From IMG/VR virus record IMGVR_UViG_3300024996_000004: a stretch of 64,000 nt of DNA; one strand, written 5' to 3'. Every line of letters begins with the position of its first letter. Position 1 is the first letter of the stretch. The position numbers and the translations under genes are program-made. The notes beneath the pieces were generated by a model, which saw only the letters and a list, made by a program, of their open reading frames with translations, had not been told where the DNA came from and ran no database searches. Origin of the DNA: a virus. This document shows positions 30,635 to 56,008 of this stretch, piece after piece.

Positions 30635-30687
30635 TTGTGTCTCATATTTCTAAATATATAGTAATTTATCCGAGTAGGACCAAGAAC

Positions 30688-31335: not shown

Positions 31336-31336
31336 T

Positions 31337-36281: not shown

Positions 36282-36331
36282 TCAAGATTGACGTATTATT
36301 TTATAAATAATGTAATAATATAGTATTTAAT

Positions 36332-40630: not shown

Positions 40631-43600
40631 GTGAATGTAAATATCCATGGTTATGCCTACAATGTTGGCGATACTGCATATGTTCTAGATGAAAATCTAG
40701 ATTACATTTATTGTATTTGTGTTTCAGTAGATGGTGTAATAAATGATGAATTAACTTACCATTTTAATATTATCGGTACTGATATAATCAATGTTTATAC
40801 ACAAAATGATTTGTATCCACTTTTTAGTAATGCCGAAATTGCTAGAAATAGATTAATCACACCTACTCCTACAATTACTCCTACACTTACACCATCTATA
40901 ACTCGTTCACCTTTTCAAACACCTACTAATAGTCCTACACCTACAGTTACAAGAGTTATTCCCGTAAATTTATTAAATGCTAATACAAATCCTTGGACAG
41001 CAATTAATGGTGTAGTTACTGTAAATTCAGACAATTCGATAACATTAATTTCCACCAGTTTACATTCTGATAACATGGTTATGTTTTCTACTACTGTAGA
41101 TACTGTTAATGATACAAAATACACTTTATCATTTGACTATAGACAAGGTTCGTGTAGAAATTTTATAGTTTATATTATATCAGATACGGACGTAATGTTT
41201 GTGGATGATAATAGTACTTATTTGACCAGCATATATTATGCTATCACTTCTGATAGCGGACGTTTAAAAGTAGATTTTGAAACGATAAATTCGGGAATAA
41301 TATCTATTGTTATGATATTATATGATGATGCTAGCTTTAGTTCATATGCAACAGGTAGCAAGTATTATAAACTAACTGATTTATCAATGCCATATAGATC
41401 GTTTGGGCCGCCTACTCCTACTCCTACGATTTCTGTTACACCAACCATTACGCCTACTATAAGTATTACTCCAAGCATTACTAATAGCATATCGTTAACA
41501 CCAACAACAACCGCGACGCCGACAATTACTGTTACACCTACACATAGTGCAACGATGCCACCATCGTTTAGTCCTACTATTAGTGTGACTCAAACTCCGA
41601 CAGTAACACCGACCAGTACTGCAACGCCAACGATTACTGTTACACCTACACATAGTGCAACGATGCCACCATCGTTTAGTCCTACTATTAGTGTGACTCC
41701 AAGTTTAACACCGACGAATACAATTACACCGACTCAAACCTCAACACCAATGAGCACGGTAACACCAACGGTAACTGTCACACCTGAAGTCACCATAACT
41801 CCAACATTGACGGCTACAGTAACACCAACAATGACCAATACTACAACGGTTACTGTAACACCACCAATTTCGAATACGCCCGAAGCTACAGTGACTCCAA
41901 CAATGACAGCTACAAACACGCCAACATTGACCGCTACTGTGACTCCAACCACAACTATTACTCCTGAAGTTACTATAACTCCGACGATATCAGTTACCCC
42001 TACTATTACTGTGTCACCAACAATAACATCCACACCTGAAGTCACTGTTACACCTACAGTAACTAACACTGTTACACCAACAATGACCAATACTACAACG
42101 GTTACAGTAACGCCACCAATTTCGAATACGCCTGAAGCTACAATGACTCCAACAGCGACAGCTACTGTGACTCCAACATTAACAATATCAAACACACCCG
42201 GAGTAAGCATTACTCCTACAGCAACTGTTACACCAACGATATCAATTACACCAGAAATTACTATAACACCAACTAATACTACTACAGTAACGCCAACAAT
42301 GACTGCAACTGTAACGCCAACATTTACTGCTACTACAACGCCGCCTGTTACTATTACGCCAACAATGACAAGTACTGTAACACCTACAGTAACTCAAACG
42401 ACGACAGCTACAGTGACTCCAACAATATCTATAACACCTACGATTTCTGTGACACCGGAAGTCACTGTGACACCGACAATGACAGGAACCCCAACATTTA
42501 CACCTACAAGTACGCCAGTAGCTACAATAACGCCCACACTGACAGTAACTTCTACTGCAACAATTACTGCTACTATAACTCCAACGATTTCAATAACGGC
42601 TACAGTAACACCAACATTTACAGCCACTGGAACACCAGTAGCTACGGTAACTCCAACAGTTACAGCAACTTTAACCAATACTGCAACTGTTACACCTACA
42701 GTGACAGCTACTACAACACCACCAGTGACCGTAACGCCAACAATGACAAGTACTACAACACCACCAGTGACTGTAACACCAACAGTGACAAGTACTACAA
42801 CACCACCTGTTACTATTACGCCAACAATGACAAGTACTATAACACCTACAGTGACAAGTACTACAACGCCACCAGTGACTGTAACACCAACAGTGACAAG
42901 TACTGTAACGCCAACATTTACTGCTACTACAACGCCGCCTGTTACTATTACACCAACAATGACAAGTACTACAACGCCACCAGTGACTGTAACACCAACA
43001 GTGACAAGTACTGTAACGCCAACATTTACTGCAACTGTAACGCCAACATTTACTGCTACTACAACACCACCAGTGACTGTAACACCACCAGTGACTGTAA
43101 CGCCACCAGTGACTGTAACGCCAACAATGACAAGTACTATTACACCTACAGTAACAGCCACAAATTCCGGTGTTACTACATATGCTCCATTCTCCACAAC
43201 TCGTAAAGCTTCAGGAACAGTATTATCGAATAGTAATTTCTCTGCTGCTTTGGATAGCACGATCAACTCAACCATTGCAGCAACAGACTCTTCATGGGCA
43301 GTAGATGGTACAACAGCTAACAAATATTGGGAAATATCTTGGTCAACATTAAGCGGTATTGGTGGTGTTGCATTAGTCGCTGATACCTTTAGTTCATTTA
43401 CAGGAAGCGTGATTTGTGGTGTGGATCATATAGGTTCTATAGGTTTGTGGTCTGATGGTTCCGTAGATTATTGGATTACTGGCTCCACATTTACCGAAAC
43501 AACTGGTGGTAGAGGATTCTCTAGTACTGATATAATTACATTATGTCTTAAAAATGGAAATCTCTACATGGGTACTGTAGCAGCTGGCTGGGAAGGAAAC

Positions 43601-46318
43601 CCTGAAACTGAAACAGGTTATAAAGTTTCAGGAATTACTGGAAATTGGAGTCCTGCCGTATGTAGCTATGGATCAGGTACTCGTAATGCCAATTTAAATT
43701 CTGGACAAACAACATGGAGTGGCGTGCCACCTACTGATAGCGAAGGCTGGTTCACATCAGCATCCCCTACACCTACACCAACATCTACAGTGACTCCTAC
43801 ATTTACACCAACATTTACACCAACAATGACTGTTACACAAACTTCTGGACTTGTTGTTACACCTACAAGCACAAGTACTACAACGCCTACAAGCACTGTA
43901 ACACCTACAATTTCAATAACACCTACAACTATAGCTTCATCGACATGGACAGCATGGAGTACAACTCGTAAAGCTTCAACCATTACTGTTTCTGGATTAC
44001 AAGCTACTATACCACAGCAAGGTGCCATTGCGGGTGATATGTCAGTAGATGCTACAACGGCTAATCGATATTTTGAAATAACAGTAAACAATTCTACTGG
44101 ACAAGTGTCCGGAATAGGAATACTAAGAGAAGATTATACTAACTATAGTGGAGTTATGGGATATTCATCTGTAGGCTCCGTGGCATATTATGCAGATGGA
44201 TCACTTGATTATTTCCTTTCTGGAACAAATGCTGCACCAGAAATCACAGGATTAACAACTTGGGCTACTGGTGATGTGATGGCTGTCTGTCTTAAAAATG
44301 GAGCATTATATTTTGGCAAAGCTAGCGGTGGAGTAACAACTTGGCTCAACGGAAATAATCCTGAAACAGAGACTGGATCACAAGTTACAGGTATTACAGG
44401 TCGTTGGAGTCCAGCTGTATGTGGATATTCATCAGGAACCCGAGTTATGACAGCTAACTTTGGCGCTAGTGCGTGGGTAGGTGCTGCTCCTACCGATGCT
44501 ATTGGCTGGCCTCATGCTCCTACATTAGGCAGCCATACAATGTATAAAGGTGAAGATTACAACACTGCTACACCTGTTATTAGTACAGCTATAACTACAA
44601 GAAGTGGAAGTAGTTATCTAATATCTAGAGGTGGTTTTGCTACTGTGACGCCCGTACCTACAGATAATATGAGTAATACATTTACGTTAAATGCCGTTTC
44701 CGATTATGTTGGATATAGTGGAACTTTTGATGCACGTAATTTCACTTGCTTGAACGGTGCCGGTGGTACTGACTATCAAGTGACATTAGATAATAGCGCT
44801 GCAAGTACTCGTGAAATTACTATGGGAATAGTAGAAATAATTAAAGATGCAGATGGCAATAATGTACGTCTAGAAGATGTCAGTTTCGTATATCCTGCCG
44901 ATGCTCCTACTATTACAAGTAATGCTGTAACTACTAGTGGACCTGCATTGCTAGTTGCTATATGGACAGGTGATGCTGGTGGATTAAATCACACAGCAGT
45001 GCCTAGTGACGGATGGCATATCATTGATAGCTTCCTAAGTTTGCCACCTAATAGTGCGGTACAATATGCAATTGCCGTCAAAGATGTAGATAGTGCCGGT
45101 TCATATTCTATAAGTTGGGCGCAAACACCTACTCAAAGCTCTCCATTGTGGATATACGCTTTCCAAAGTGATACAACCCCTTCTGTAACGCCTACAGTTA
45201 CTCCAACACCTACTGTAACATCTACTATTATTGGTTCACCTACCGTAACACCTACGACAACTGTAAGTATTACTACAAGTCCAACTGTAACACCTACAAA
45301 GACAAGTACAGTGACACCTACTATTTCATTGACTATTACAGTGACACCAAGTATTACACCAACACATACACCAACGCCTACAAAGACTATTACAATTACA
45401 CCAACAATTACACCGACAAGAACTAAAACGCCTGCTGCTGGTTCGACAGTAACGGTAACGCCTTCAGTTACTCGAAGCGTTACAAGAACACCTACTAAGA
45501 CTCCGACACCATCACCTACTATTTCATTGACTATTACAGTGACACCGAGTATTACTCCTACAATTACAGTAACACCTTCAGTGACAAGAACTGCAACAAC
45601 TTCTATCACACCTTCTATCACTGCTTCTGTTACAGGTTCATTAGGTGCCAGTGTTACACCGACACCTACGCCAACAACAACAATAACACCTACTATTACT
45701 TCAACACCAACAGCAGTAATAAATTATACAACATGGGATTCGGCAGATACTTCATATGGAATATCTTTTAGTAATGGTGATTTAACCGTTTTGTGTGCGG
45801 GAGATAATAGAGGTACTTCTTCATTGGCGGCGAGTGCGGTTGACGTGTCAACTGCACATAATTACTACGAACAACATTTGGATGCTTTCGTAGCATCTGG
45901 TGTATCTTATGTTGGATTTGCTACAAGTGCATGGGCTAAAGACAGTCCTCCCGGAACAGGATATGCAGCTACACCTAATGCATTCTCTGTTAATAAAACT
46001 GGTACAATGTGGTTAAGTCAGGCTAATGTGGGTTCTACTGGTCTTACTTTCACTACAGGTGATTATGTATTGATGTACTTAGCAGCCGGTGGCGGTGTTT
46101 ATATCGGAAAAAATAGTGGAGGCACAGTGACTTGGGCTTCAGGACACAATCCAAATACAGTGGGTGATACTCCAAATTATACACTACCAGCAGGTACATG
46201 GCGTCCCGCTTGTGGTGGTGATGCTTCTGGCTCTAACCAAGTAACAATGACCACTAACTTCGGTGCTTCTGCATGGTCTACAACCCCTCCAACCGGAGCT
46301 ATCGGTTGGACTGATTAA
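40631..46318 (+). CDS. Giant mucin-like Thr/Pro-repeat fibre protein with CBM-like and three SPRY/ConA-like domains
   Basis: ~800 aa of TPTxTx repeats; YWE/YFE/YYE...TGD....L.....Y.G...W.PA....NFG domains; GATAAATA upstream. Confidence 0.88.
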   Translation: MNVNIHGYAYNVGDTAYVLDENLDYIYCICVSVDGVINDELTYHFNIIGTDIINVYTQNDLYPLFSNAEIARNRLITPTPTITPTLTPSITRSPFQTPTNSPTPTVTRVIPVNLLNANTNPWTAINGVVTVNSDNSITLISTSLHSDNMVMFSTTVDTVNDTKYTLSFDYRQGSCRNFIVYIISDTDVMFVDDNSTYLTSIYYAITSDSGRLKVDFETINSGIISIVMILYDDASFSSYATGSKYYKLTDLSMPYRSFGPPTPTPTISVTPTITPTISITPSITNSISLTPTTTATPTITVTPTHSATMPPSFSPTISVTQTPTVTPTSTATPTITVTPTHSATMPPSFSPTISVTPSLTPTNTITPTQTSTPMSTVTPTVTVTPEVTITPTLTATVTPTMTNTTTVTVTPPISNTPEATVTPTMTATNTPTLTATVTPTTTITPEVTITPTISVTPTITVSPTITSTPEVTVTPTVTNTVTPTMTNTTTVTVTPPISNTPEATMTPTATATVTPTLTISNTPGVSITPTATVTPTISITPEITITPTNTTTVTPTMTATVTPTFTATTTPPVTITPTMTSTVTPTVTQTTTATVTPTISITPTISVTPEVTVTPTMTGTPTFTPTSTPVATITPTLTVTSTATITATITPTISITATVTPTFTATGTPVATVTPTVTATLTNTATVTPTVTATTTPPVTVTPTMTSTTTPPVTVTPTVTSTTTPPVTITPTMTSTITPTVTSTTTPPVTVTPTVTSTVTPTFTATTTPPVTITPTMTSTTTPPVTVTPTVTSTVTPTFTATVTPTFTATTTPPVTVTPPVTVTPPVTVTPTMTSTITPTVTATNSGVTTYAPFSTTRKASGTVLSNSNFSAALDSTINSTIAATDSSWAVDGTTANKYWEISWSTLSGIGGVALVADTFSSFTGSVICGVDHIGSIGLWSDGSVDYWITGSTFTETTGGRGFSSTDIITLCLKNGNLYMGTVAAGWEGNPETETGYKVSGITGNWSPAVCSYGSGTRNANLNSGQTTWSGVPPTDSEGWFTSASPTPTPTSTVTPTFTPTFTPTMTVTQTSGLVVTPTSTSTTTPTSTVTPTISITPTTIASSTWTAWSTTRKASTITVSGLQATIPQQGAIAGDMSVDATTANRYFEITVNNSTGQVSGIGILREDYTNYSGVMGYSSVGSVAYYADGSLDYFLSGTNAAPEITGLTTWATGDVMAVCLKNGALYFGKASGGVTTWLNGNNPETETGSQVTGITGRWSPAVCGYSSGTRVMTANFGASAWVGAAPTDAIGWPHAPTLGSHTMYKGEDYNTATPVISTAITTRSGSSYLISRGGFATVTPVPTDNMSNTFTLNAVSDYVGYSGTFDARNFTCLNGAGGTDYQVTLDNSAASTREITMGIVEIIKDADGNNVRLEDVSFVYPADAPTITSNAVTTSGPALLVAIWTGDAGGLNHTAVPSDGWHIIDSFLSLPPNSAVQYAIAVKDVDSAGSYSISWAQTPTQSSPLWIYAFQSDTTPSVTPTVTPTPTVTSTIIGSPTVTPTTTVSITTSPTVTPTKTSTVTPTISLTITVTPSITPTHTPTPTKTITITPTITPTRTKTPAAGSTVTVTPSVTRSVTRTPTKTPTPSPTISLTITVTPSITPTITVTPSVTRTATTSITPSITASVTGSLGASVTPTPTPTTTITPTITSTPTAVINYTTWDSADTSYGISFSNGDLTVLCAGDNRGTSSLAASAVDVSTAHNYYEQHLDAFVASGVSYVGFATSAWAKDSPPGTGYAATPNAFSVNKTGTMWLSQANVGSTGLTFTTGDYVLMYLAAGGGVYIGKNSGGTVTWASGHNPNTVGDTPNYTLPAGTWRPACGGDASGSNQVTMTTNFGASAWSTTPPTGAIGWTD
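41410..43160 (+). repeat. Imperfect 18-bp tandem repeats encoding TPTxTx
   Basis: ACACCAACA-rich periodicity with larger internal duplications; second block at 45170-45715. Confidence 0.92.
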
Positions 46319-46350
46319 TTCTAAAAAATTTTATGATAATTTATAAAGTA

Positions 46351-47043
46351 TTAATTTAAGGGTAATCCTATATGACCATTGACATCCGTCATACGCATCA
46401 TTTCAATGATTGATGTATCACTTATATTGAAGATGGGATAGTTACTTTTTAATGCTGCCATTTGTACATCAATGGTTACAGTAAATTGAGATAAATTATT
46501 CAATTCATTGAATTCATAACCACATTCCCATGTTTTTATAAAGTTATGAATAGAGGGATCGACTTTAAATATCAAACATGCTTCTCGAAAGACATAATAT
46601 TGTTGTAATTTATCATTATTATGAGCTAATATTTTTTCAATAGTACATGGTGAATTTTTAAATATGTCTATGTGATATTTTAGTGAATCTTTTCCTAATG
46701 GTGCATTCAAACCATAATTAATAGATTGAAAAGCTTCTTCATTATAAGTTGATGTTAAGTAACAATCCGCATCTAACATAATAATAATGTCATCTGTATT
46801 AGTCAATTCATTAGCTTTTAATAAAGATTGATATTTTAGATTAGGTTTAAATAAATCTCCAGTATAATCCTTTCCTTTGCTCACTGTTAATACATCTGAA
46901 GTGTAAGAGCTATAAAATTCAATATTATCAGTGACAATATGAATTTTACTATCACTAGCATATTTTTTAATGCTATCTATCGCTCTTAAAGACAATTCAT
47001 GGTATTTTTCGCCATAAGCGATGATAGCAAATATAATCATCAT
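46351..47043 (-). CDS. GT-A-fold glycosyltransferase-like protein
   Basis: IHIVTD, LK...L, IMLDADC (DxD). Confidence 0.7.
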   Translation of the reverse strand: MMIIFAIIAYGEKYHELSLRAIDSIKKYASDSKIHIVTDNIEFYSSYTSDVLTVSKGKDYTGDLFKPNLKYQSLLKANELTNTDDIIIMLDADCYLTSTYNEEAFQSINYGLNAPLGKDSLKYHIDIFKNSPCTIEKILAHNNDKLQQYYVFREACLIFKVDPSIHNFIKTWECGYEFNELNNLSQFTVTIDVQMAALKSNYPIFNISDTSIIEMMRMTDVNGHIGLPLN

Positions 47044-48695
47044 TAATTCGTATAATGTCTATTTTCGCGACGAGTTTTTCCATCATAAAAAGTCTTACGT
47101 TCATGGTAAACAGGCGCAGCTAATAAAGTTCCAACTTTCAATTTACCATCCATCATGTAAGTTTTACATGCCGAACAAAGTGTTTGTTCGTACAGATGTT
47201 CATACACAATATTCAAAAATACTTTGCGATTGCCTTCTTTATTGAACATAATAGGCCAATTACTATAATGAAAATGACCTACAGCATAAGCTACATTTTT
47301 ATATTTGCCTAGATATTCAACTTTTGATTTCCATCTAAGTTCTTCATTTCCATCTTCACGAATTGGAAAATATAATTCTCTTTTATCTGCAGGAACATTC
47401 TTAAAAGACCAATCGCTTAAATTATCACCGAAGAATTCGATAATCGTAGCTCTTAAATAATCTAAATTGTTATCTTCAATGATGTCTATCATAACATTAA
47501 ACATATCTGGAACGTATCTAATAAACCCGTCTACATTTTGTACATTATCTGTAGAAGCAACTAATTTAAAATCTTCTTCAAAAAACATATAATATTTGTG
47601 ATCACTTGTGTCAAAATGAGTAGCGGCCTTCTGTCTACCATCTTGTATGCCTATGTTCGATCCTTCGTGGATTATTTCAAAATCATATTTAGTAAATAGC
47701 TTCCGATATTCTACTTTAGCATTTTTGTCAGTAGAATTATCTATGACATATTTTTTATGATTTGTGAAATCTTTAGGATAAGCTTTTTGATAAGATTCGA
47801 CAAACGATTTGAATTCAGAAGGGGTGTTATAAGTCAAAGCATAGACCGCTATGGGAAATTCTGGCTCCGATTCAATGATATTTTTAGACAAATCTTCAAA
47901 AAATTTATATAAAAGACCATTACTTTCTATCATTTTTACATTATATTTTTTCGGTTCCCGATAAGTTAATAATGTAAATATATTCTCTTCTGTCCCCATT
48001 TCATTTACGTTTAATGTTTCATGTAATAGTTGATAATATTCTCCATTACATGAGTTAATGGCGTCTCGACTTCCACCGAAAAATCCTCCGCGACACACAT
48101 ATTCCGTATCCTTGCCTGCGAATTTATTCATCCCAGCTTTAGTGAATCCGTGAACTTCATATTTTCCATCATAAGGAAAGGCTACAAACAACATTTTATT
48201 CAAATGTGGTGTCAATTTTTTCTCAAAATTATCATCAATATACTGATTTAAATTAACAGTATTAGCTAATCCAGCATCAATCCATGCATAATATTTTGTA
48301 GAAAATGTATTGAATATTGTGGCGTCATTCAACATAAACATCTTTGACATAACTAATGGATCATATAATTCTAACTTAGCTTGAGTGCTATCCTGTAACC
48401 AACTCGCTTGACTATACCATTTTGGATCATTACGTATTTTTTGAATTTTGTCATAAAATGGAAAATTCCTCAAATCGTCTAATGATTTGTGGATTACTTG
48501 TGTATTAGTTCTCGATCTATGTTTCCATACAATATGTTCATTCTCTTTCTCTATGTAAATGATCATAGGATAATTTACTTTTAAAAGCTTTTCAAAACAT
48601 TCTATATAATGGGAAAATGGACGTTTGAAATCCGTATCAAGTTGTCCACGACCTATATCAAATAAACCTGTGACTAATGTCAGTTTGTGTGTCAT
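47043..48695 (-). CDS. Two-domain glycosyltransferase (HtrL/YibB-like + GT2-like)
   Basis: TLVTGLFDIGR, SK, WIDAG, GGFFGG, GTEE; second domain VIDNS, NIG, FFEED. Confidence 0.82.
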   Translation of the reverse strand: MTHKLTLVTGLFDIGRGQLDTDFKRPFSHYIECFEKLLKVNYPMIIYIEKENEHIVWKHRSRTNTQVIHKSLDDLRNFPFYDKIQKIRNDPKWYSQASWLQDSTQAKLELYDPLVMSKMFMLNDATIFNTFSTKYYAWIDAGLANTVNLNQYIDDNFEKKLTPHLNKMLFVAFPYDGKYEVHGFTKAGMNKFAGKDTEYVCRGGFFGGSRDAINSCNGEYYQLLHETLNVNEMGTEENIFTLLTYREPKKYNVKMIESNGLLYKFFEDLSKNIIESEPEFPIAVYALTYNTPSEFKSFVESYQKAYPKDFTNHKKYVIDNSTDKNAKVEYRKLFTKYDFEIIHEGSNIGIQDGRQKAATHFDTSDHKYYMFFEEDFKLVASTDNVQNVDGFIRYVPDMFNVMIDIIEDNNLDYLRATIIEFFGDNLSDWSFKNVPADKRELYFPIREDGNEELRWKSKVEYLGKYKNVAYAVGHFHYSNWPIMFNKEGNRKVFLNIVYEHLYEQTLCSACKTYMMDGKLKVGTLLAAPVYHERKTFYDGKTRRENRHYTN

Positions 48696-48707
48696 AAAAT
48701 TCTCTTA

Positions 48708-49559
48708 TTATATCAAATCTTCAAAAAAACCACTAAAAGATTTCAGTTGTGGATTATAACAATCCCAATCTTCGTGATACCATGTTGTAAATGTTTCAAT
48801 GTTAAATTTATCTGGATGTTGTTGATAAATCAATGTTAATATCAATTCTTCAGGTAATAATGTATTATTTTCTAATATGTAAGAAATAATATTTACATAA
48901 TCCTGTGTTATGTCTTTAATAACAGATTCTGTTCCACCAAAAAGACCTGCAACAATGCTTCCAGTCAATCTAGATTTATTTGCATATAATTCTGGATATT
49001 GATGTTGCAGGCAATCACAGTAAAAGGTAAACATTTTGTCATTATCAGTTATTTTATCTAATTTTTCAATCAATTTATTTGAAAACGCTAAATCGTTTTG
49101 ATGAGTGCCTTCGACTGAAGTATCTTGAGTTGAATTGAACTTTTTAGGTAGAATTCCACAATGTGATATGCCTGCATCAATCCAGAATATTTTATGATCA
49201 GGATTTCCAATCATTTCATCATTCATCCATAATAACTTTTGCCACATAATTTCCACACAACGATGTTTCCATATCAAATCTTTTTCATATTCTTTAGCAT
49301 TAATAGTTTTTAACCGCGTAATATCTGTATGATATACACAGTTTGTTAAATCAAAAATTTTTAGTGTGACATTGGTGATATTATGCATGTCTAAATATTT
49401 TTGAATATTCTTCTCATCATTATCTGAAGTATAACATATGATATCTACACCCATTCCAGCCAAGCATCTTAAAGAATAGAGATACCAATTGTCTCTATTC
49501 AATCTTCCATTAAATGATGATGTATGTAAGCCATTATATATTGCAGTTACAAATTTCAT
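48708..49559 (-). CDS. HtrL/YibB-like glycosyltransferase
   Basis: FVTAIY, K..W, FWIDAG, GLFGG, EE.IL. Confidence 0.78.
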   Translation of the reverse strand: MKFVTAIYNGLHTSSFNGRLNRDNWYLYSLRCLAGMGVDIICYTSDNDEKNIQKYLDMHNITNVTLKIFDLTNCVYHTDITRLKTINAKEYEKDLIWKHRCVEIMWQKLLWMNDEMIGNPDHKIFWIDAGISHCGILPKKFNSTQDTSVEGTHQNDLAFSNKLIEKLDKITDNDKMFTFYCDCLQHQYPELYANKSRLTGSIVAGLFGGTESVIKDITQDYVNIISYILENNTLLPEELILTLIYQQHPDKFNIETFTTWYHEDWDCYNPQLKSFSGFFEDLI

Positions 49560-51811
49560 TATGTAGTCCAATATGAATATTTGTAAGGAGTATCTAATCT
49601 AGATAATTCTAGATAATCTGATTCTGTTTTAGCTTCTTCTGAAGTAAGATGCGACAGCATCATAGCTTCATAATGATTAGACATCCATTCCATGTTTTCA
49701 GTGTTTCCGGCAAAATATGATGAAATTAATCTATTAGATGAATCCGTTGATATGCAAATAGTATCATCTGTAAGTTTATTTTTAGTTTGTGACAATATAT
49801 CCATAATATTCTTTATAGGTATCGTATTAAAGTCAACAAATAAATGATATTTAGTATCATATATGTTATTGTTAACTATTTCTTTCATCCACAATAATTT
49901 AACATATTTTGCATAATCGTTAGTAGTTTCTAATCCCATATTATGTGATTCCCGTAATCTACTATCGTAATAATGCTGGTGTGGTTTTACTCTAAAATAT
50001 TGCAAAGACTCGGATTCTGGTAGCATTGTTTTATATTTCTGATAATTATATTGTGGTATAATTAATAATATATTTTTATGAACAGACATAAGTTTCTTTA
50101 TGGATTTAACATCTGCGTCGATATTATCTGCATCATTAAACATCATAATGTTTAATGAATATTGTGATGGTTCACTTTTTTTGTATGTAATAACTTTCTT
50201 TCTAAAAGAATCGTCATAATGTTTCAATATTAATTTACCATTAACATACAATGCATCCAATTCAGTCTGATTAAGGATTTTAAATGCATCTGATAATCTG
50301 GTTAGAATAGGTTTTCCATCTACATTGAATGAAGTGTTCAATATTACACCATGTCCGGTTAACTTATCTACTTCACCTAATAAATCATAGATAAATTTGT
50401 TTTGAGATTCTGTGACAGTTTGTAATCTGGCCGTATTATCTTCATGTGTAATGGCAGGTAACACTTTACGCCATTCTTCTCTAACTTCAGCCACAAACAC
50501 CATATGTCTAGATTCAACATCTTTGTCAAACTTGAAATATTTTGGACAATCTTCTAATCTAACAATAGGTGCGAAGGGTCTATACCATTCACGATGCTTA
50601 ACTTTCTTATTTAAAATATTTTTCATGTCTCCTACAGGATCACATATAATGCTGCGATTACCCAAAGCTCTAGAGCCATGTTCCGAATCACCTTGAATAA
50701 TTCCTATAATTTTTCCTGCAGCAACTAATTCAGCTATTTCAAAAGGTGTTACATTTTCATGCATAACTAAATGATGTTCTTGTAATAATGTTCCCATTTG
50801 ATTTTCATCTAATAAAGGAGTGCCGGAATAAGTTAAATCAATTTGAGTTTGAGGATTCATATACCATAAAATTCCGCCTACTGCTATGCCACAATCATTA
50901 ACGTTCGGTGGAACAAATACTTTATTGTCTCTCATTTTAAGCAACTTAGCATTCAATAATACATTGAGCGCACAGCCTCCTGTAAGCGCTACAGGCATTT
51001 GTGGATACTTATTTAAGTAAGACTGTGCATACTTGAAGAATTGTCGTTCAAAGGCTCTCTGTGAGGTCGCAGCGATATCCCATGCTACTTGTCCTTCAAA
51101 CCGTGTACTAGTCACATCAAAATTTTTTATTCCAATATTGTTAAACAATTGAATCAATGCTTCATTCTTTACTTCTGCACCACCAAGGTAAGATCGACCA
51201 GTATAGTTAAATTTCTCATAGAACTTTTCAAAATGAGGCAACCATTGATCATTGCATACGCCATAGCTGGTTATTCCCATTAATTTACCGCTCCACACCA
51301 AGTTTCCTATGTTTAATGGGTCTTTTTTAATATCAGCCAAATAATCGCCAAAAATCATATAGGCGAATCCTAAATCTTGTCCAAACTTTTCTAAGAGTTT
51401 AATGCCATCTTTACGATTAGCTAGATAAACGTTGAAAAACCCACCATCACCACCACCATCCCAAGAAAATATTAAAGCTTCTTGATATGGCGATTGATAA
51501 AATGCTGTTGCGGCATGTGCTGTATGATGATCAAAATGTTTGTGTTCTTTGTATTTGAATTTGGGAACAATGTCTTTAACATAATCAGTTAAATATACAT
51601 CCACTTCTTTTTTATCTACAGTGGATAATAAGTAATCAGTAATTTCATCGAATACTACTTGTGGATATTTACAAGGAAGATAATTAGTTAATCCTATATT
51701 TTTAGAATTTAACCATCGTTCGAGTTCGATATTTTTCCATACACCTTTGTAATGCATAGAAATACACGCATTGTGACTACCATAAGCGGAAATAATTAGT
51801 TTATCATGCAT
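49559..51811 (-). CDS. NodU/CmcH carbamoyltransferase fused to degenerate HtrL-like domain
   Basis: HHTAHA, DGGGD, GKLMG, GGCALN, RALGNRS, KHREWYRPFAP, LNTSFN; C-terminal K..W...YHLFVDF. Confidence 0.92.
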   Translation of the reverse strand: MHDKLIISAYGSHNACISMHYKGVWKNIELERWLNSKNIGLTNYLPCKYPQVVFDEITDYLLSTVDKKEVDVYLTDYVKDIVPKFKYKEHKHFDHHTAHAATAFYQSPYQEALIFSWDGGGDGGFFNVYLANRKDGIKLLEKFGQDLGFAYMIFGDYLADIKKDPLNIGNLVWSGKLMGITSYGVCNDQWLPHFEKFYEKFNYTGRSYLGGAEVKNEALIQLFNNIGIKNFDVTSTRFEGQVAWDIAATSQRAFERQFFKYAQSYLNKYPQMPVALTGGCALNVLLNAKLLKMRDNKVFVPPNVNDCGIAVGGILWYMNPQTQIDLTYSGTPLLDENQMGTLLQEHHLVMHENVTPFEIAELVAAGKIIGIIQGDSEHGSRALGNRSIICDPVGDMKNILNKKVKHREWYRPFAPIVRLEDCPKYFKFDKDVESRHMVFVAEVREEWRKVLPAITHEDNTARLQTVTESQNKFIYDLLGEVDKLTGHGVILNTSFNVDGKPILTRLSDAFKILNQTELDALYVNGKLILKHYDDSFRKKVITYKKSEPSQYSLNIMMFNDADNIDADVKSIKKLMSVHKNILLIIPQYNYQKYKTMLPESESLQYFRVKPHQHYYDSRLRESHNMGLETTNDYAKYVKLLWMKEIVNNNIYDTKYHLFVDFNTIPIKNIMDILSQTKNKLTDDTICISTDSSNRLISSYFAGNTENMEWMSNHYEAMMLSHLTSEEAKTESDYLELSRLDTPYKYSYWTT

Positions 51812-51832
51812 AGTGTTTGATTTTATTTACTA

Positions 51833-52207
51833 CTATTTATGGCTAATTTTTTCAATTAAATCATAGATATTTGATTCGTTTTGGGAATCTTTTAATCCAC
51901 GTTCATAGCCTGTTTCTTCTGCAATCTTTAGCTGTTCAACATGTTTGCTGTGCATTTTATCTATTGTTTGATGTAATTTAGCATTTTCGTCTATACAGTG
52001 TGCAAGTTGTGTTTCAACTTTACGTAATGACATTAATAAACCACGTTCTTCACCTAATTGTACGCGCTCTATGCAACCCGGTACAGCATCCGGTTTTGCT
52101 CCAAAATGATCGCGCGCATGTCCTATTGTAGTAAATGTTTCGCCACAATGAAAGCATGTCCATCCATGTTCAGGCTTTTCATAGGTATCACTATTATGTG
52201 ATGTCAT
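51833..52207 (-). CDS. Zinc-finger + coiled-coil protein
   Basis: WTCFHCGETF...H. Confidence 0.75.
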   Translation of the reverse strand: MTSHNSDTYEKPEHGWTCFHCGETFTTIGHARDHFGAKPDAVPGCIERVQLGEERGLLMSLRKVETQLAHCIDENAKLHQTIDKMHSKHVEQLKIAEETGYERGLKDSQNESNIYDLIEKISHK

Positions 52208-52644
52208 GTCCACAAATATTGTCTATATCTAATAATATTCAACAAATGTTCCGTATCCTTTTCATAAACATCAAGAACCCGTGCATAATTTTCAATATCA
52301 TTGCGAATTTTTGCCCAATCATAAGCTTTTTTCATCGTATCATAGATGTGTTTATGATGTGCTCTTTCTTCAATTGTATCATCTAATGATCTAATTTGAT
52401 CGCGCACTAAATCATCATAAACTTCATAACTATAGCGCAATGATGCTTCACCATCATCATTTTCCCAAAAATTAATCAAGCATTCGAATGTTAAATCTGC
52501 AATTAGATAATCAATATCACAAAAACTTTTAGGAATTGTATCAGTAAGCCATTTTTGACGTGGACGAAACTGTATAGATATTCCATATCTAAGTTTTGAC
52601 CACCAATATTTGTTAAATATAAACCAATTATTAAATTCTTTCAT
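52204..52644 (-). CDS. Hypothetical protein
   Basis: ORF coupled to next gene. Confidence 0.75.
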   Translation of the reverse strand: MKEFNNWFIFNKYWWSKLRYGISIQFRPRQKWLTDTIPKSFCDIDYLIADLTFECLINFWENDDGEASLRYSYEVYDDLVRDQIRSLDDTIEERAHHKHIYDTMKKAYDWAKIRNDIENYARVLDVYEKDTEHLLNIIRYRQYLWT

Positions 52645-52673
52645 TTCGTGATTCCAGTTTAATCACCCCTGAT

Positions 52674-54446
52674 TCAATCGTTTTTAATAAATTTTATTTT
52701 TCCAGCATCGTATATTTTTAAAAATCCATGACGATGCATATTTTTCGTTTCTGATAATGATGGATCATAATTTTCTAATTTACTTTTCATTCCAACATGT
52801 CTAAATCCAAATTTATGATATCTTCTTCCACTCTTAATCCAATAATAATCTGGATCAAGATTTTTGTCAACTATGAAGCCGTTTTTGTGATATAAATCAC
52901 CATTGCTCCATCTTAAGTCTGCAAAAGTTATAATTTTAGGATGATTCCATTCATTTTCAAAATGTTTTAATAATTTTGAAAATCCTCCAACAACATGACA
53001 TGATGTTGCATATCTATTCAACGTAAATGACTCATCATTATTGTTGATGAATCCTATAACAGCGATTAATTCATTATCATATATTAATCCGTAATTAATA
53101 GAGCTTGGACCATCACCTTGGATATGATGCCTGTCAAGAAAACCTTTTTTAATAGAAGAATCAATTTCTACAATTGTAGTTTTTCTAGCATGCACTTTAT
53201 TCATATTAGAAACGTTCAAAGCATATAACAATTTTTGTTCAACCAATTCTCTTTTATCTGTCCATTCATCTTCAAAAATTTGGATTAATTGAATTCCTTT
53301 CTCTTTACATTTTAAATATTTTTCATGATGATAGTTATCAGGTTTTTGAGCTTCAGAATGCCAATATAATCCATTAAATTCTATAGCAATCTGTTTAGAT
53401 GGGATATAAATATCAAGTTCGCTTGGGGAGATTATGACTTTCGTATTTGTCAATACTTCATCATCAAAATAAGTTTTTATAAATGCTGCAACCTCTTTTT
53501 CTGGGCCTGATGCATAATAATATCTGTGTTCGATGTCATAAAATTCCATTCGTGAACTAACAGTCCCATCACATACATTTAATAATTTTGCTATAGATGC
53601 CATCGACATTTGTTCATCGTGATGTTTTTGAATCAACCAATCTTTATCGTTTAATAATTTCATGGTTTCATCACTAATATGGCTATTCATATGATACTCA
53701 TAACCATATCTTTCTAGATTAGTTTGTCTGGCTTGCTCCACAAATCCATCAATTTCTGTGGCAAATTTAACTCCATATTTTTCAAGATTTGTGTCAATCA
53801 TCTTTTGTAAGATATCAGGATTTTGTGCAGGACGCTCCACACCATAACGTTTTAAATTAGTTTCTTTAATTTTTTCTTTAAATTCTTCGTATTGAAATGG
53901 ATTGTCTACGTTGTAACGCTCAAGGAATGTTTCGTGACGTTTTTCTTTAATAATATCGGAATGTGATGGATTTTCCACGCCATACTTTTCTAACATGGTT
54001 TCCTTGGCTTTAGCTGCAACATCCTCATTTTTTAATGAAAAATGATTACCATATCTTTCGATATTAGTTTCTTGAGCTTTTTTTAAAATATCGGGATTAC
54101 GTAAGGGAACTTCTGCTCCGAATCGCAAAATATTTGTTTGTTTACGTTTTTCTTTAGAACTATCACTAGATTTTGCACACTTTAAACAATATTCGGTATA
54201 TCGATCATTTTTGTGATTATCCCATCGACAATTTTTCCCACACATTCCGCATGTGGGAATTGTTGTTATATTGTTCAATATATGCCATGCTCTAGTCTGT
54301 AATCTTACAGTATCAGGGAGATAATCAGTTAATGTTAATATAGTTTCATACGCTGACATATGTTCTAATTTCTTTGAGCGAGATATGCCATACGTCCATT
54401 TTGGATACTTATTCCAATAGTTTTTTAATTCATCTACAGTTAACAT
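52674..54446 (-). CDS. hef: Hef-like homing endonuclease
   Basis: TNLERYGV repeats; ELDIYIP...AIEFNGLYWH; IFEDEW; ARK, HIQG, FADLRWS, IYDAG. Confidence 0.8.
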   Translation of the reverse strand: MLTVDELKNYWNKYPKWTYGISRSKKLEHMSAYETILTLTDYLPDTVRLQTRAWHILNNITTIPTCGMCGKNCRWDNHKNDRYTEYCLKCAKSSDSSKEKRKQTNILRFGAEVPLRNPDILKKAQETNIERYGNHFSLKNEDVAAKAKETMLEKYGVENPSHSDIIKEKRHETFLERYNVDNPFQYEEFKEKIKETNLKRYGVERPAQNPDILQKMIDTNLEKYGVKFATEIDGFVEQARQTNLERYGYEYHMNSHISDETMKLLNDKDWLIQKHHDEQMSMASIAKLLNVCDGTVSSRMEFYDIEHRYYYASGPEKEVAAFIKTYFDDEVLTNTKVIISPSELDIYIPSKQIAIEFNGLYWHSEAQKPDNYHHEKYLKCKEKGIQLIQIFEDEWTDKRELVEQKLLYALNVSNMNKVHARKTTIVEIDSSIKKGFLDRHHIQGDGPSSINYGLIYDNELIAVIGFINNNDESFTLNRYATSCHVVGGFSKLLKHFENEWNHPKIITFADLRWSNGDLYHKNGFIVDKNLDPDYYWIKSGRRYHKFGFRHVGMKSKLENYDPSLSETKNMHRHGFLKIYDAGKIKFIKND

Positions 54447-54509
54447 GTCCAAAAAATTCCTATAATTCTGGACATGTTAACTTAACAACATTGAAAAGTA
54501 AAGACTTTA

Positions 54510-55952
54510 TTAACTATCTGCGTAACGAACGATCCTATTCAACCATCCCTTGGATTTGCTGTGAGGCCACATAACATAAGTTTTTGCAGTTTTATCGGGT
54601 TCAGAAAAATATATGAATCTATAATCGATCCAATCACCTTTACTTAAATAATCGAATAGTTCTTGTTCGGATAAATCTTTACGGTGAATTTCTTTATCAT
54701 TTTCATCATGTGCACCAACGTAGCAAAAATCGAAATCTAAATCGGGATATGGTTCGTCAATATCAGTTTCTGGATTATGCCATGTAATATCGTTTTTATT
54801 GATGCACACTCTTATATCATTAGATTTAGTAATGGTTGCTTTCCATTCTTCTTCAGAATCATAATGTTTATAACCTGATAATTGTGGTTCAGTTCTATCT
54901 AATACACATTGTTGCACACCACGATATTTGAATGATACACCAGAAAATTCTTCAAAATCTTTTACAGTTCTAACAGTGCCGAAGCCATACTTACCAAAGT
55001 CTATTTGAGATTGATCTTCCCCATCCATACCAAATAGTATTCGATTGCGCTTGTGAGATTTTACATTCATTTCCCACCAATCTTCAGTAATCTTGCCTTT
55101 CTGTTTTTGCTGTGATGTAAAATCATCCCATACTTTAGTGCGTCCTGCTCTAGTAAATTCATGCCAACATATAACAATATTTGGATGATACATGTCATAA
55201 CCATGTGTATAAGCTCTTACGCCTATAGATACTTCTTCACCGTGGAAAAATAGATTTGGATCATGTTGAACTTCTGTTGCAAAAGTGCCATCAGCAAACG
55301 CAAAGTGTGCTGAATAAAATCTGGCATGCATAGGCTTGGTTCTACTTTTCCAATCATCAATTGTACTGGGGCGAGTAAAATGTGTCCCCTCAGGAATGAA
55401 GCGATCGAAGTCCATCTTCCATGGTTCTTTCACTCTTTCAGCAGGATCATTCATAGGATTAAAAGAAGGTACATAAGTCGTCAATAGAGGTTTCGGACTT
55501 ATGTCTCTTACAGATTCCAATTGTTCGATTAATAGCAAATCAAAATTATCTACGAATCTATGATGGGAATCTAATTGTAATGTATATTTTTCATTGTTGT
55601 AATGTTGTTGAATCTTATTTCTGGCCCAACAAGCACCTTTAGTCTTTAGATAATGAATATCTATTAGCTCTACTGTAGCACCATTCTTTTTGAGAACATG
55701 TACAGAATCGCCAAGCCTGTTTAAAGTTGCATCTACTTCAAATCCATTATCTAGAAAATCTTCAATGGTTTCATCCATTGCATGTTGCCAGCATACAACA
55801 ACACGGAGTAATTCAGGATGTTTAGCATGGTTAATCATGTCTACTAAAGTAGGAATTAACTGTGGATCACGATAACTAGCCATTTGTACAAATATGGTGT
55901 TCAGTGTTGAAATTTTTTCTTCTTTATTGTTTTCTTTATTATTTTTCTTCAT
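54510..55952 (-). CDS. Gnt1/GT60-like polypeptide N-acetylglucosaminyltransferase
   Basis: TIFVQMASYRDP, GACWAR, LQLDSHHRF (DSH), LLTTY, FYSAHFAF, DP.LFFHGEE...RAYTHGYDMYHP. Confidence 0.88.
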   Translation of the reverse strand: MKKNNKENNKEEKISTLNTIFVQMASYRDPQLIPTLVDMINHAKHPELLRVVVCWQHAMDETIEDFLDNGFEVDATLNRLGDSVHVLKKNGATVELIDIHYLKTKGACWARNKIQQHYNNEKYTLQLDSHHRFVDNFDLLLIEQLESVRDISPKPLLTTYVPSFNPMNDPAERVKEPWKMDFDRFIPEGTHFTRPSTIDDWKSRTKPMHARFYSAHFAFADGTFATEVQHDPNLFFHGEEVSIGVRAYTHGYDMYHPNIVICWHEFTRAGRTKVWDDFTSQQKQKGKITEDWWEMNVKSHKRNRILFGMDGEDQSQIDFGKYGFGTVRTVKDFEEFSGVSFKYRGVQQCVLDRTEPQLSGYKHYDSEEEWKATITKSNDIRVCINKNDITWHNPETDIDEPYPDLDFDFCYVGAHDENDKEIHRKDLSEQELFDYLSKGDWIDYRFIYFSEPDKTAKTYVMWPHSKSKGWLNRIVRYADS

Positions 55953-55981
55953 TTTATCCTCTATATTCAAATGTAAAAAAT

Positions 55982-56008
55982 GAAGGGAGTTAAATCCTAA
56001 CTCCCTTC
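55982..56008 (-). terminator. Intrinsic terminator
   Basis: GAAGGGAGTTA-loop-TAACTCCCTTC with A-run on left. Confidence 0.8.

Follow-up and report, generated by a model that had tools for sequence, protein, structure and literature searches.

The window analysed here is a 64,000-nucleotide stretch of the viral record IMGVR_UViG_3300024996_000004. It is part of an uncultured, low-GC jumbo phage of ~295 kb from the lineage of Xanthomonas phage XacN1, a distant relative. The GC content of the window is ~30%, versus ~50% in XacN1, Xoo-sp13, and RAS14, the hosts of which are Xanthomonadaceae. At the locus under study, a plus-strand gene encoding a Thr/Pro-repeat protein of 1895 amino acids converges on a run of minus-strand enzyme genes, an arrangement that had been described in the initial annotation and that we recovered.

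The Thr/Pro-repeat protein (P0001; 40631..46318, plus strand) starts at a GTG codon and contains 499 Thr, 184 Pro, and 189 Ser residues. It is a candidate acceptor of glycosylation. Thr/Pro tracts are located at nucleotides 40844-40981, 41393-43210 (606 aa), 43730-44002, and 45152-45760, and they total ~950 aa. In the main block (aa 256-860), Thr and Pro account for 43% and 17% of the residues, only 10 residues are charged, and Thr occupies every second position (lag-2 count of 201 vs a lag-1 count of 30). The window holds two (TP)3 codon runs vs none in 100 shuffles, which excludes a chance origin. From the N-terminus, the protein displays a ~75-aa module, a TP linker, a ~150-aa domain, and a (T-x)n/TP stalk of ~600 aa. 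The C-terminal part consists of three related domains of ~190 aa and one of ~220 aa, with TP tracts between them. The label SPRY-like, used in the initial annotation and kept here for the three related domains, depends on a Pfam match below threshold (E 1.4e-4, 22 bits vs a cut-off of 26). No virion assignment was obtained for this protein. Antisense open reading frames within the gene (e.g., 42394-43323, minus strand) are by-products of the repeats.

Upstream lies a gene for a 264-aa protein (37442..38236, plus strand) that matches the N-terminal ~270 aa of the fibre (30% identity in a 271-column BLASTP alignment, E 4e-11). Judging by its sequence, it is a short relative within the same protein family, with the shared N-terminal module, a TP linker, the shared ~150-aa domain, and a TP tail; its TP tracts lie at 37598-37753 and at the C-terminal end. 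Meanwhile, the fibre gene itself starts 67 nucleotides after a same-strand gene (39367..40563, plus strand) encoding a Ser/Thr/Gly/Asn-rich protein of 398 aa. This protein matched phrog_11259 (E 4e-99), had no match in Pfam or the PDB, and has no assigned function. It is 52% identical to XacN1 ORF329. The gene was found in 13 of 80 GT60 loci, every one of them among the 15 loci of the XacN1-like clade, in which it is the regular convergent neighbour of the enzyme cassette. The 1895-aa gene, in turn, has no homologue at the syntenic position in XacN1, Xoo-sp13, or RAS14, and this comparison of gene order identifies it as a lineage-specific insertion outside the conserved synteny.

The first enzyme of the minus-strand run is a member of GT60 (54510..55970, minus strand), a polypeptide HexNAc-transferase-like enzyme and the putative initiator. 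Its longest open reading frame starts from TTG at 55970; the ATG at 55952, where the initial annotation had ended its region of interest, gives a form of 480 aa and is likely the true start. The match to PF11397 (E 1.3e-74) spans profile positions 1-350 of 352, and phrog_24687 was matched with an E-value of 6e-163. The SYRD, DSH, and FHGEE motifs reported earlier are all present, and their core residues, among them D134-S135-H136 and F242-H243-G244-E245-E246, do not vary across 14 homologues. The catalytic GT-A domain (aa ~25-370) is followed by a beta-rich C-terminal domain of ~115 aa (aa ~371-486) that lies beyond the Pfam model. The solved folds closest to the model are mucin-type GalNAc-transferases (Foldseek E 5e-7). 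VIA-align gave Z 17.1 for GalNAc-T1 (270 aligned residues, rmsd 4.1) and 16.3 for Toxoplasma gondii GalNAc-T3, vs at most 14.8 for other GT-A folds, a modest margin of ~1.5-2.5 Z units, and sequence identity to GalNAc-transferases is just 13-16%. No Pfam GT2 or ricin-lectin match was found in this enzyme, and no transmembrane segment or membrane anchor was predicted in it, in the other enzymes, or in the Thr/Pro proteins. The prolyl hydroxylase family PF13640 is absent from all 10 GT60-positive genomes checked, which makes a Skp1-type hydroxyproline route unlikely.

In the XacN1-like clade the cassette adjoins the replication module (RNase H, DNA polymerase) and faces the ORF329 homologue. The position beside replication genes hints that the enzymes might glycosylate hypermodified bases of phage DNA, and there are precedents for DNA hypermodification by viral glycosyltransferases (Pyle 2024, as cited in PMC12619734). 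We regard this as extremely unlikely. XacN1 DNA gave digestion patterns with BssHII, NaeI, and SpeI, digests that the legend of XacN1 supplementary Fig. S6C describes as used for terminal-repeat mapping. In other lineages, the neighbours of GT60 are Thr/Pro genes instead of replication genes, the substrates of GT60 and GT27 enzymes are polypeptides, and the scanned open reading frames of the window included no hydroxymethylase or base-modifying gene. Furthermore, a terminator-like hairpin (55982..56008, minus strand; a 12-bp stem followed by a T-run) sits between GT60 and the upstream replication-module gene, suggesting that the cassette is a separate transcription unit. This hairpin comes from a consensus scan in which the number of sites in the region was no higher than in shuffled sequence.

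The initial annotation mentioned no interruption of the enzyme run. The enzymes are all there, but the run is split by a 592-aa HNH-type homing endonuclease (52674..54452, minus strand; phrog_3339 E 2e-135, phrog_559 E 1.5e-73, DUF7487 E 2e-34) and by two small open reading frames of 126 and 146 aa without assigned function (51833..52644, minus strand), located between the endonuclease and the carbamoyltransferase gene. The small frames had no Pfam or PHROG match and no tblastn match in the XacN1 and Xoo-sp13 loci. XacN1, Xoo-sp13, RAS14, and the loci L005, L007, and L009 have no homing endonuclease separating GT60 from the next cassette gene, and in RAS14 no gene at all lies between GT60 and the carbamoyltransferase. 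The endonuclease is a selfish insertion that parts GT60 from the remaining genes and stands outside the glycosylation system. It had escaped the initial annotation, as had the 264-aa fibre paralogue and two glycosyltransferase-like genes at 30637..31993 (plus strand; phrog_4603 E 3e-38 and phrog_1962 E 2e-39). The latter pair heads the plus-strand block whose last gene is the fibre. One of the two is MptE-like/DUF115 (of the flagellin 'Maf' type, with the PHROG name alpha-2,3-sialyltransferase), although its PF01973 match (E 3.4e-7) falls under the cut-off; the other is the phrog_1962 glycosyltransferase. Both may be part of the same glycosylation toolkit.

The next cassette gene (49559..51811, minus strand) encodes a 750-aa protein in which a NodU/CmcH-type O-carbamoyltransferase (aa 1-530) is fused to a C-terminal HtrL-like domain of ~210 aa. 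Profile matches (PF16861 E 1e-57, PF02543 E 3e-28, phrog_1601 E 5e-120) and structural matches of the tail to HtrL-containing clusters (TM 0.72-0.75) agree with the fusion of a carbamoyltransferase to a glycosyltransferase that had been proposed. The NodU model was matched under its equivalog cut-off (E 7e-50), and identity to XacN1 ORF333 is 50% over the full length. The NodU/CmcH likeness could mean that the product of the cassette is not a protein glycan but a carbamoylated oligosaccharide, either free or attached to a lipid, resembling a Nod factor or secondary metabolite; cyanophage clusters also pair carbamoyltransferases with enzymes that modify sugars and amino acids (PMC7824862). Such a product is very unlikely, since the carbamoyltransferase is optional (12 of 80 GT60 loci) while GT60 and the two-domain glycosyltransferase form the constant core, and neither Pfam nor PHROG searches found an acyltransferase, flippase, or exporter in the cluster.

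That two-domain glycosyltransferase (550 aa; 47043..48695, minus strand) carries an HtrL_YibB domain at aa 1-268 (PF09612, E 1.8e-21), with a GT-A fold closest to the retaining families GT6, GT8, and GT24, and a GT2-like GT-A domain at aa 277-540 with an invariant E-D-D. Its AlphaFold model (pLDDT 92.7) was matched by Foldseek to the tandem-glycosyltransferase enzymes K4CP, mimivirus R699, LH3, and LARGE1 (E 2e-11 to 1e-9). In VIA-align, the C-terminal domain aligned with B4GALNT1 (Z 15.4), and the N-terminal domain with BoGT6a (Z 12.8) and PBCV-1 A64R (Z 11.1). A divergent HtrL-domain paralogue of 287 aa, a putative extra glycosyltransferase (48708..49571, minus strand), matches aa 30-254 of the 550-aa protein (BLASTP E 1e-7) and has the WIDAG, GGxFGG, and EE motifs in common with it. 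It is 33% identical to XacN1 ORF332, syntenic in the XacN1 clade, and present in 21 of 80 GT60 loci. The prediction of two HtrL-like enzymes, one fused to a GT2-like domain, thus held. So did that of a DxD glycosyltransferase, a 230-aa GT-A protein with a DAD motif (46351..47043, minus strand), whose structural matches in the atlas are GT8, GT6, and Nucleotid_trans clusters (TM 0.69-0.81). With a homologue in a single one of 80 GT60 loci, the 230-aa protein is lineage-specific, like the fibre gene.

A four-gene core of GT60, the carbamoyltransferase, the ~285-aa protein, and the HtrL enzyme is syntenic in XacN1, Xoo-sp13, RAS14, and metagenomic relatives. XacN1 ORF330-334, Xoo-sp13 genes 300-304, and the RAS14/CM1 orthologues represent the same cassette, with identities of 33-58%. 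Its content varies: an extra 246-aa gene lies inside the cassette of XacN1 and Xoo-sp13 and is absent from RAS14, and in locus L009 a Sulfotransfer_4 gene takes the place of the carbamoyltransferase, a kind of swap that is typical when a surface glycan is exposed to diversifying pressure. Across lineages, GT60 and the two-domain enzyme are no more than 10 kb apart in 68 of 80 viral loci, which represent at least three types of replication module. The two genes are a conserved pair that co-travels in several phage lineages, and they remain 43-76% identical across phages that span 26-43% GC and differ in their replication modules, which probably means that the hosts differ as well.

This conservation bears on whether the enzymes instead remodel glycans of the host envelope (LPS/LOS core, O-antigen, or capsule) during infection, either blocking superinfection or reducing re-adsorption of progeny to debris, with carbamoyl groups as glycan decoration. 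The HtrL_YibB family is known only from LOS/LPS loci of bacteria, in which its genes belong to lipo-oligosaccharide loci (PMC4172580), a review of jumbo phages takes phage glycosyltransferase clusters as modifiers of host surface polysaccharide or capsule (PMC7824862), and XacN1 ORF328 is a GT9 heptosyltransferase-like protein with its best match in Xanthomonas. We nonetheless find host remodelling quite unlikely. An acceptor carried by the phage better fits a GT60 pair so conserved over probably different hosts, the closest folds to GT60 are polypeptide transferases, all of the enzymes are without a membrane anchor, and the association with TP tracts would go unexplained.

That association was detected at several levels. 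In three GT60-positive cultured phages, the (TP)3 codon pattern was counted 19-29 times, vs 0 times in the five GT60-less jumbo phages. Ten further GT60-positive genomes contain 7-60 copies of the TPTPT pattern, vs 0-1 in GT60-less phages and 0-4 for the reversed control pattern. The co-occurrence that the initial annotation had put forward as a check was thereby found, with abundant TP codon runs in 13/13 GT60-positive genomes tested, in a contrast that has few negative controls (the five GT60-less phages) and includes close relatives as non-independent observations. In the reverse direction, PF11397 was detected in 9/42 viral records picked solely for a (TP)5 run vs 0/31 picked for (AP)5 (Fisher p = 0.008), and in 4/5 vs 0/7 of those contigs longer than 100 kb. 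GT60 is absent from the other 33 of the 42 TP-bearing contigs, indicating that TP tracts do not depend on it. In 31 of 59 non-redundant GT60 loci, a Thr/Pro tract 40 aa or more in length lies no further than 10 kb away, and in 14 no further than 3 kb, a proximity for which the control is weak, as 12 of 79 AP-selected loci have TP tracts as well. Often, in many unrelated loci, the Thr/Pro gene is immediately upstream of GT60 on the same strand (e.g., L073, L037, L044, L080). Five of ten complete GT60-positive genomes have no TP tract near GT60. The proposed priming of the phage's Thr/Pro tracts by its own GT60 therefore gains real comparative support, but the adjacency of fibre and cassette in the window is not a conserved synteny.

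It is also conceivable that the cassette glycosylates phage proteins while the TP tracts are plain flexible linkers, the acceptors being structural proteins (for example, of the capsid, tail, or baseplate) or the 398-aa Ser/Thr-rich protein conserved next to the cassette. XacN1 virions contain at least two Schiff-stained glycoprotein bands; the authors proposed ORF328 and ORF334 as their source (PMC5852040), and ORF334 is the orthologue of the GT60 of the window. These glycoproteins exist though ORF325, the giant baseplate-adjacent protein of XacN1, has only short TP linkers. Likewise, the 398-aa gene invariably converges on the cassette in the XacN1-like clade, and in mycobacteriophages, glycans are carried at the C-terminal ends of capsid and tail-tube subunits (Freeman 2023, as cited in PMC12619734). 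We consider acceptors other than TP tracts unlikely. They would leave unexplained why GT60 is enriched in TP-selected and not AP-selected records, and why TP genes are placed immediately upstream of GT60 in lineages without the 398-aa gene. Long TP tracts, 195 and 69 aa in length, do occur in another XacN1 protein, ORF350.

Based on these findings, the reading that we favour, and hold to be reasonably probable, is that phage enzymes O-glycosylate the Thr/Pro tracts of phage proteins on Thr, possibly also on Ser, and would do so in the cytoplasm of the host prior to assembly. Because GT60 accompanies Thr/Pro repeats across many phages, the phage probably sugar-coats its own proteins. We counted in favour of self-glycosylation the family and fold of GT60, the soluble enzymes, the conserved core, the genome-level co-occurrence, the reverse TP/AP test, the Thr/Pro neighbourhood, the XacN1 staining, and the variable capping. 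GT60 would place the first HexNAc on Thr in (T-x)n/TPT tracts, as its family, fold, and co-occurrence suggest. The two domains seen in the model of the HtrL+GT2-like enzyme could then add two more sugars, and lineage-specific enzymes would diversify and cap the glycan. In the window, the capping set may comprise the second HtrL paralogue, the carbamoyltransferase-HtrL fusion, and the GT8/GT6-like protein. The most obvious candidate acceptors in the window are the 1895-aa protein and its 264-aa paralogue, in which the shared N-terminal module may serve as a particle anchor, with TP stalks and exchangeable globular tips beyond it. The stained glycoproteins of XacN1 virions are the sole observation from which we infer a virion location for the glycosylated products.

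Parallels to this putative system exist in eukaryotes and their viruses. Gnt1, the cytoplasmic GT60 enzyme of Dictyostelium and Toxoplasma, modifies the hydroxyproline of Skp1 with alpha-GlcNAc, while the Golgi GT60 enzymes of Dictyostelium and Trypanosoma cruzi modify Thr/Ser of mucins with the same sugar. The phage enzyme shares with them the family (PF11397), the DxH (DSH) motif, and the GT-A fold; it is soluble like Gnt1 and tied to Thr/Pro-rich mucin-like sequences like the Golgi enzymes. Unlike them, it is encoded by a virus, would act in the bacterial cytoplasm, has the extra beta-rich C-terminal domain, and is paired with a two-domain HtrL+GT2 enzyme and not with a conserved prolyl hydroxylase. 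The GT27 GalNAc-transferases of animals and apicomplexans, the initiators of mucin-type glycosylation, act on Thr in Pro-rich tandem repeats and are the top structural match to the phage catalytic domain, from which they differ in their low sequence identity to it, their GT2 and ricin-lectin domains, and their membrane anchor.

Among viruses, chloroviruses and mimivirus likewise encode host-independent sets of soluble multi-domain GT-A enzymes, and the proteins that the two-domain enzyme resembles in structure include PBCV-1 A64R and mimivirus R699; in Nucleocytoviricota clusters, HtrL domains are fused to sulfotransferases. These are, however, viruses of eukaryotes, and PBCV-1 glycans are N-linked to capsid Asn. 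To our knowledge, neither a GT60 initiator nor a TP-tract acceptor has been described in them. Mycobacteriophages infect actinobacteria and carry their glycans on capsid and tail-tube C-termini, yet they offer a precedent for the self-modification that we propose. Their own glycosyltransferases modify virion proteins in the host cytoplasm, for which shielding has been proposed (Freeman 2023, as cited in PMC12619734). A further comparison is with XacN1 itself. Whereas XacN1, Xoo-sp13, and RAS14 have neither the giant TP protein at this site nor a homing endonuclease between GT60 and the carbamoyltransferase, XacN1 shares the orthologous syntenic cassette beside RNase H and DNA polymerase, and its virions contain glycoproteins.

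The enzyme that heads the minus-strand cassette (46351-55970) belongs to glycosyltransferase family GT60. Its gene (54510-55970), called Gnt1/GT60-like in the initial annotation, fits PF11397 with an E value of 1.3e-74 and 252 bits (cut-off 21) over profile positions 1-350 of 352, indicating full-length membership of the family. The SYRD, DSH and FHGEE motifs are present as described there, and their core residues are invariant among GT60 homologues. The predicted structure (pLDDT 72) displays the GT-A fold, which together with a DxH motif (D134-S135-H136, invariant in 14 homologues) characterizes the family. Its nearest neighbors are GalNAc-T1, GalNAc-T2, and GalNAc-T3 of T. gondii; polypeptide GalNAc-transferases ranked top in two aligners (Foldseek E 5e-7), with VIA Z-scores of 17.1 to GalNAc-T1 bound to a mucin glycopeptide and 16.3 to the T. 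gondii enzyme. This margin is modest, since further GT-A enzymes scored 14.8 or below. A beta-rich C-terminal domain (approximately aa 371-486) lies outside the Pfam model. The protein matched no Pfam family besides PF11397, and phmmer returned no match to PDB sequences.

The other cassette genes also encode the enzymes that had been proposed for them. The 750-aa carbamoyltransferase is of the NodU/CmcH type, with matches to PF02543 (E 2.6e-28) and PF16861 (E 1.1e-57), and scored 170 bits against the NodU equivalog, below its cut-off of 1000. The glycosyltransferase part of this fusion, the last ~210 aa, is HtrL-like by predicted structure, the Atlas structure (TM 0.72-0.75) being its only tie to that family. 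The 550-aa protein (47043-48695, minus strand), hereafter the two-domain enzyme, matched HtrL_YibB (PF09612) with an E value of 1.8e-21 and 77 bits (gathering cut-off 24), and reached 78 bits against the E. coli YibB equivalog, below the cut-off of 265. It was read as an HtrL-like enzyme fused to a GT2-like domain, and its high-confidence model (pLDDT 92.7) indeed contains two GT-A domains. The closest structures to the N-terminal HtrL domain are retaining enzymes of families GT6, GT8, and GT24 and A64R of PBCV-1; those to the C-terminal domain, which has an invariant E-D-D, are B4GALNT1, POMGnT1, GnT-I, and TarS. The second HtrL-like enzyme, of 287 aa, is a divergent HtrL paralogue whose only tie to the family is a BLASTP match of 1e-7, while the DxD enzyme, of 230 aa, resembles GT8/GT6-type GT-A enzymes and carries a DAD motif. 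No transmembrane segments were detected in GT60, in the other cassette enzymes, or in the Thr/Pro protein that we discuss as their acceptor.

Two further gene groups had been overlooked. A homing endonuclease of 592 aa (52674-54452; phrog_3339, DUF7487) and two small ORFs beside it (51833-52644) part GT60 from the remaining cassette; at that position, a gene of this type is absent from all six relatives examined. Meanwhile, two overlapping glycosyltransferase-like genes at 30637-31993 (MptE-like/DUF115 and phrog_1962) open the plus-strand block whose last gene encodes the Thr/Pro fibre. The MptE-like gene shares its fold family with the flagellin "Maf" nonulosonic-acid transferases and bears the PHROG name alpha-2,3-sialyltransferase.

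The proposed acceptor is encoded at 40631-46318 on the plus strand, in an ORF that specifies 1895 aa as first reported and stops 32 nt from the end of the minus-strand run. Its Thr/Pro tracts total about 950 aa. The main block (aa 256-860) is nearly uncharged; Thr accounts for 43% of its residues, Pro for 17%, and Ser for 7%, with Thr at alternate positions. With its tandem repeats of 18-252 nt, the block is a long Pro/Thr/Ser-rich tract of the mucin-like (PTS) kind. Between the tracts are an N-terminal module of ~75 aa, a domain of ~150 aa, three mutually similar domains of ~190 aa, and one of ~220 aa. The labels "CBM-like" and "lectin-like" given to such domains found no support, since Pfam and PHROG returned only sub-threshold or repeat-driven matches (SPRY, in the ~190-aa domains, and Laminin_G_3, both sub-threshold, and phrog_15511, driven by the repeat), and nothing informative above threshold, for the globular domains and for ten Thr/Pro proteins of other loci. 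Likewise, beyond the repeat itself, no informative Pfam or PHROG match linked the 1895-aa protein to virion proteins.

The first 270 aa of the fibre have a 264-aa paralogue at 37442-38236, which the initial annotation had missed. In addition, a 687-aa DUF285 protein (L015:89-2152), encoded on the same contig as locus L005 of the closest relative, has the same N-terminal module and TP linker as the fibre (37.5% identity over 176 aa), suggesting that the stalk proteins form a family in which the tips are exchangeable. The window also encodes a protein of 1102 aa in which DUF5122 beta-propeller repeats occur 11 times (32018-35326; E 8.5e-105), followed at 35337-37126 by ORFs with weak matches to "virion structural protein" PHROGs.

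The initial annotation had suggested testing whether GT60 and HtrL genes co-occur with TP-repeat genes, and at the level of genomes GT60 and TP tracts are associated. The (TP)3 codon pattern occurred 29 times in XacN1, 26 in Xoo-sp13, and 19 in RAS14 (reversed control pattern, 0-1), and never in the jumbo phages RsoM2USA, Atu_ph07, fHe-Yen9-03, SCTP-2, and XaC1, all five of which lack PF11397. Ten complete or near-complete genomes with GT60 contained 7-60 TPTPT runs each (control pattern, 0-4), against 0-1 in the phages above without it. Conversely, PF11397 was detected in 9/42 viral records chosen only for a (TP)5 run and in 0/31 chosen for (AP)5 (Fisher p = 0.008), and among contigs longer than 100 kb in four of five and none of seven, respectively. 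These are the tests on which we rely, since the AP-selected loci are a poor background for adjacency, with TP tracts also in 12/79 of them. With that weak control, a tract of at least 40 aa lay within 10 kb of GT60 in 31 of 59 non-redundant loci and within 3 kb in 14. At four loci (L073, L037, L044, and L080), proteins of 48-54% Thr+Pro are encoded directly upstream of GT60 on the same strand. Adjacency is not universal: in 5/10 complete genomes the TP tracts lie away from GT60. For the phage enzyme, the co-occurrence lends indirect support to the reaction typical of GT60, in which GlcNAc passes from UDP-GlcNAc, with retention, to a Thr, Ser, or Hyp hydroxyl of a polypeptide. Less likely readings are that the enzymes remodel the host envelope, which would leave the association with Thr/Pro tracts unexplained, or that the cassette makes a free glycolipid or metabolite. 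Among the papers searched, none linked PF11397/GT60 with phage Thr/Pro proteins.

The pairing of GT60 with the two-domain enzyme extends well beyond the window. An alignment-based scan recovered at least 537 relatives of GT60 on viral contigs (a single-sequence locus search gave none), and among the best 80 loci, 68 encode the two-domain enzyme at most 10 kb from GT60. Only about 15 of these 80 display the replication context of XacN1. The T4-like polymerase of some GT60-positive genomes is only 31-33% identical, and in others none is detectable, indicating that several phage lineages are involved.

The window itself comes from a jumbo phage, so far uncultured, that belongs to the lineage of XacN1: its DNA polymerase shares 46-49% identity with the enzymes of the Xanthomonas phages XacN1 and Xoo-sp13 and the Stenotrophomonas phages CM1 and RAS14 (about 35% with that of Ralstonia phage RsoM2USA), and its GT60 protein has been recorded on contigs of up to 295 kb. 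Besides this T4-type polymerase, the window encodes ribonucleotide reductase, gyrase/topoisomerase IV-like type II topoisomerase subunits, and RNase H. A megablast search of 50,697 phage records returned no near-identical phage DNA for the cluster. From 6.4 kb onward the GC content is about 30%. Positions 1-6400, with 43-46% GC, contain small ORFs only, repeated sigma-70-like TTGACA-N17-TATAAT elements (e.g., 3302-3339, 4370-4407, 5145-5179, and 5963-6000), and a 59-nt repeat at 892-950 and 2235-2293 (95% identical). No rRNA or tRNA that could cause the high GC was found there; this stretch resembles an early region made up of small genes and may be of different origin. It opens with an open-ended ORF (1-360) in which a 9/12-nt periodic repeat encodes 14 overlapping copies of Ala-Ala-x units (x being Asn, Tyr, or Asp), and at the GC boundary is an intergenic, AT-rich cluster of direct and inverted repeats (6520-6775 and 7321-7369) with five copies resembling ATTTTTTTAAAAATTTTT.

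Beside RNase H and DNA polymerase, the order GT60, carbamoyltransferase, ~285-aa protein, and ~550-aa protein is kept in XacN1 (ORF334-330), Xoo-sp13, RAS14, and the metagenomic contigs L005 and L007. In all five, the cassette is faced by a conserved gene of ~400 aa (39367-40563 in the window); neither its 398-aa product nor the two-domain enzyme matched the sequence of a solved structure. The 1895-aa and 230-aa genes have no counterpart at that place in the syntenic relatives. They have been inserted where the ~400-aa gene meets the cassette, which makes the adjacency of fibre and cassette lineage-specific. A further, less likely reading is that a different phage protein is the acceptor. The capping chemistry also differs between relatives: at L009:11375-15196, in a 345-kb relative, a 527-aa protein takes the place of the carbamoyltransferase and a Sulfotransfer_4 gene follows the HtrL enzyme, which suggests sulfate instead of carbamoyl capping.

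Purified XacN1 virions contain at least two Schiff-stained glycoprotein bands, and the authors proposed the two glycosyltransferases of the phage, ORF328 and ORF334, as their source (PMC5852040). ORF334 is the GT60 orthologue. Near a head-completion gene and adjoining a "structural protein" gene, XacN1 also encodes the hypothetical protein ORF350 (L001:932-2896; 654 aa). Its Thr/Pro tracts are 195 and 69 aa long, and it may well account for one of the stained bands. Glycosyltransferases might instead modify phage DNA. BssHII, NaeI, and SpeI digest XacN1 DNA (PMC5852040, supplement), a result that speaks against heavy glycosylation of its bases, and the GT60 genes of other lineages sit among Thr/Pro genes; DNA hypermodification is thus unlikely.

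Based on these findings, the best reading of the cassette is a three-step O-glycosylation pathway in the cytoplasm. The enzyme families and folds, the absence of transmembrane segments from the enzymes, the conserved pairing, and the statistical association are observed, and we infer what the enzymes act on, which sugars are donated, in what order the enzymes work, and that the product is on the virion. GT60 would attach the first HexNAc to Thr of the tracts, the constant two-domain enzyme would add two sugars, and variable enzymes would extend and cap the glycan, with carbamoyl in the phage of the window. More broadly, we tentatively postulate, at somewhat less than even confidence, that several lineages of large phages encode complete, soluble, cytoplasmic mucin-type O-glycosylation, in which GT60 initiates at Thr of (T-x)n/TP tracts and is followed by a fixed two-domain extender and interchangeable carbamoyl or sulfate caps, and in which modular stalks with a shared N-terminal anchor and swappable tips are the acceptors and form a virion glycocalyx.

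If confirmed, this would assign a function to HtrL_YibB, an uncharacterised family, explain the abundance of TP tracts in these large aquatic and soil phages, and provide a compact, membrane-free enzyme set for producing O-glycoproteins in the bacterial cytoplasm. It would also matter for how stable phages are and how they adsorb, and for their recognition by hosts and immune systems. Because XacN1, Xoo-sp13, RAS14, and CM1 are in culture, the idea can be tested directly in relatives.

Among known systems, the Skp1-type pathway, in which GlcNAc is attached to hydroxyproline, has a prolyl 4-hydroxylase partner for which we found no equivalent. The only prolyl-hydroxylase-type match in the window is a 207-aa protein (63160-63783) with a weak, sub-threshold hit to 2OG-FeII_Oxy_3 (E 4e-4). 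Its gene is kept beside the DNA polymerase in the XacN1 clade, and a search prompted by this ORF found PF13640 absent from 10 other GT60-positive viral genomes. With no prolyl hydroxylase traveling with GT60, a hydroxyproline route is unlikely. The likeness of GT60 to the GT27 GalNAc-transferases is at the level of fold only (13-16% identity); their GT2-type domain and C-terminal ricin-type lectin are not recognisable in its sequence. Virus-encoded protein glycosylation as such is already known. Mucin-type O-glycosylation of Thr/Pro tracts, encoded by bacteriophages and carried out by soluble relatives of the enzymes that initiate protist and animal mucins, would extend it beyond mycobacteriophage capsids and giant eukaryotic viruses, and would constitute a counterpart of eukaryotic mucins in viruses of prokaryotes, built with relatives of the same initiating enzymes.
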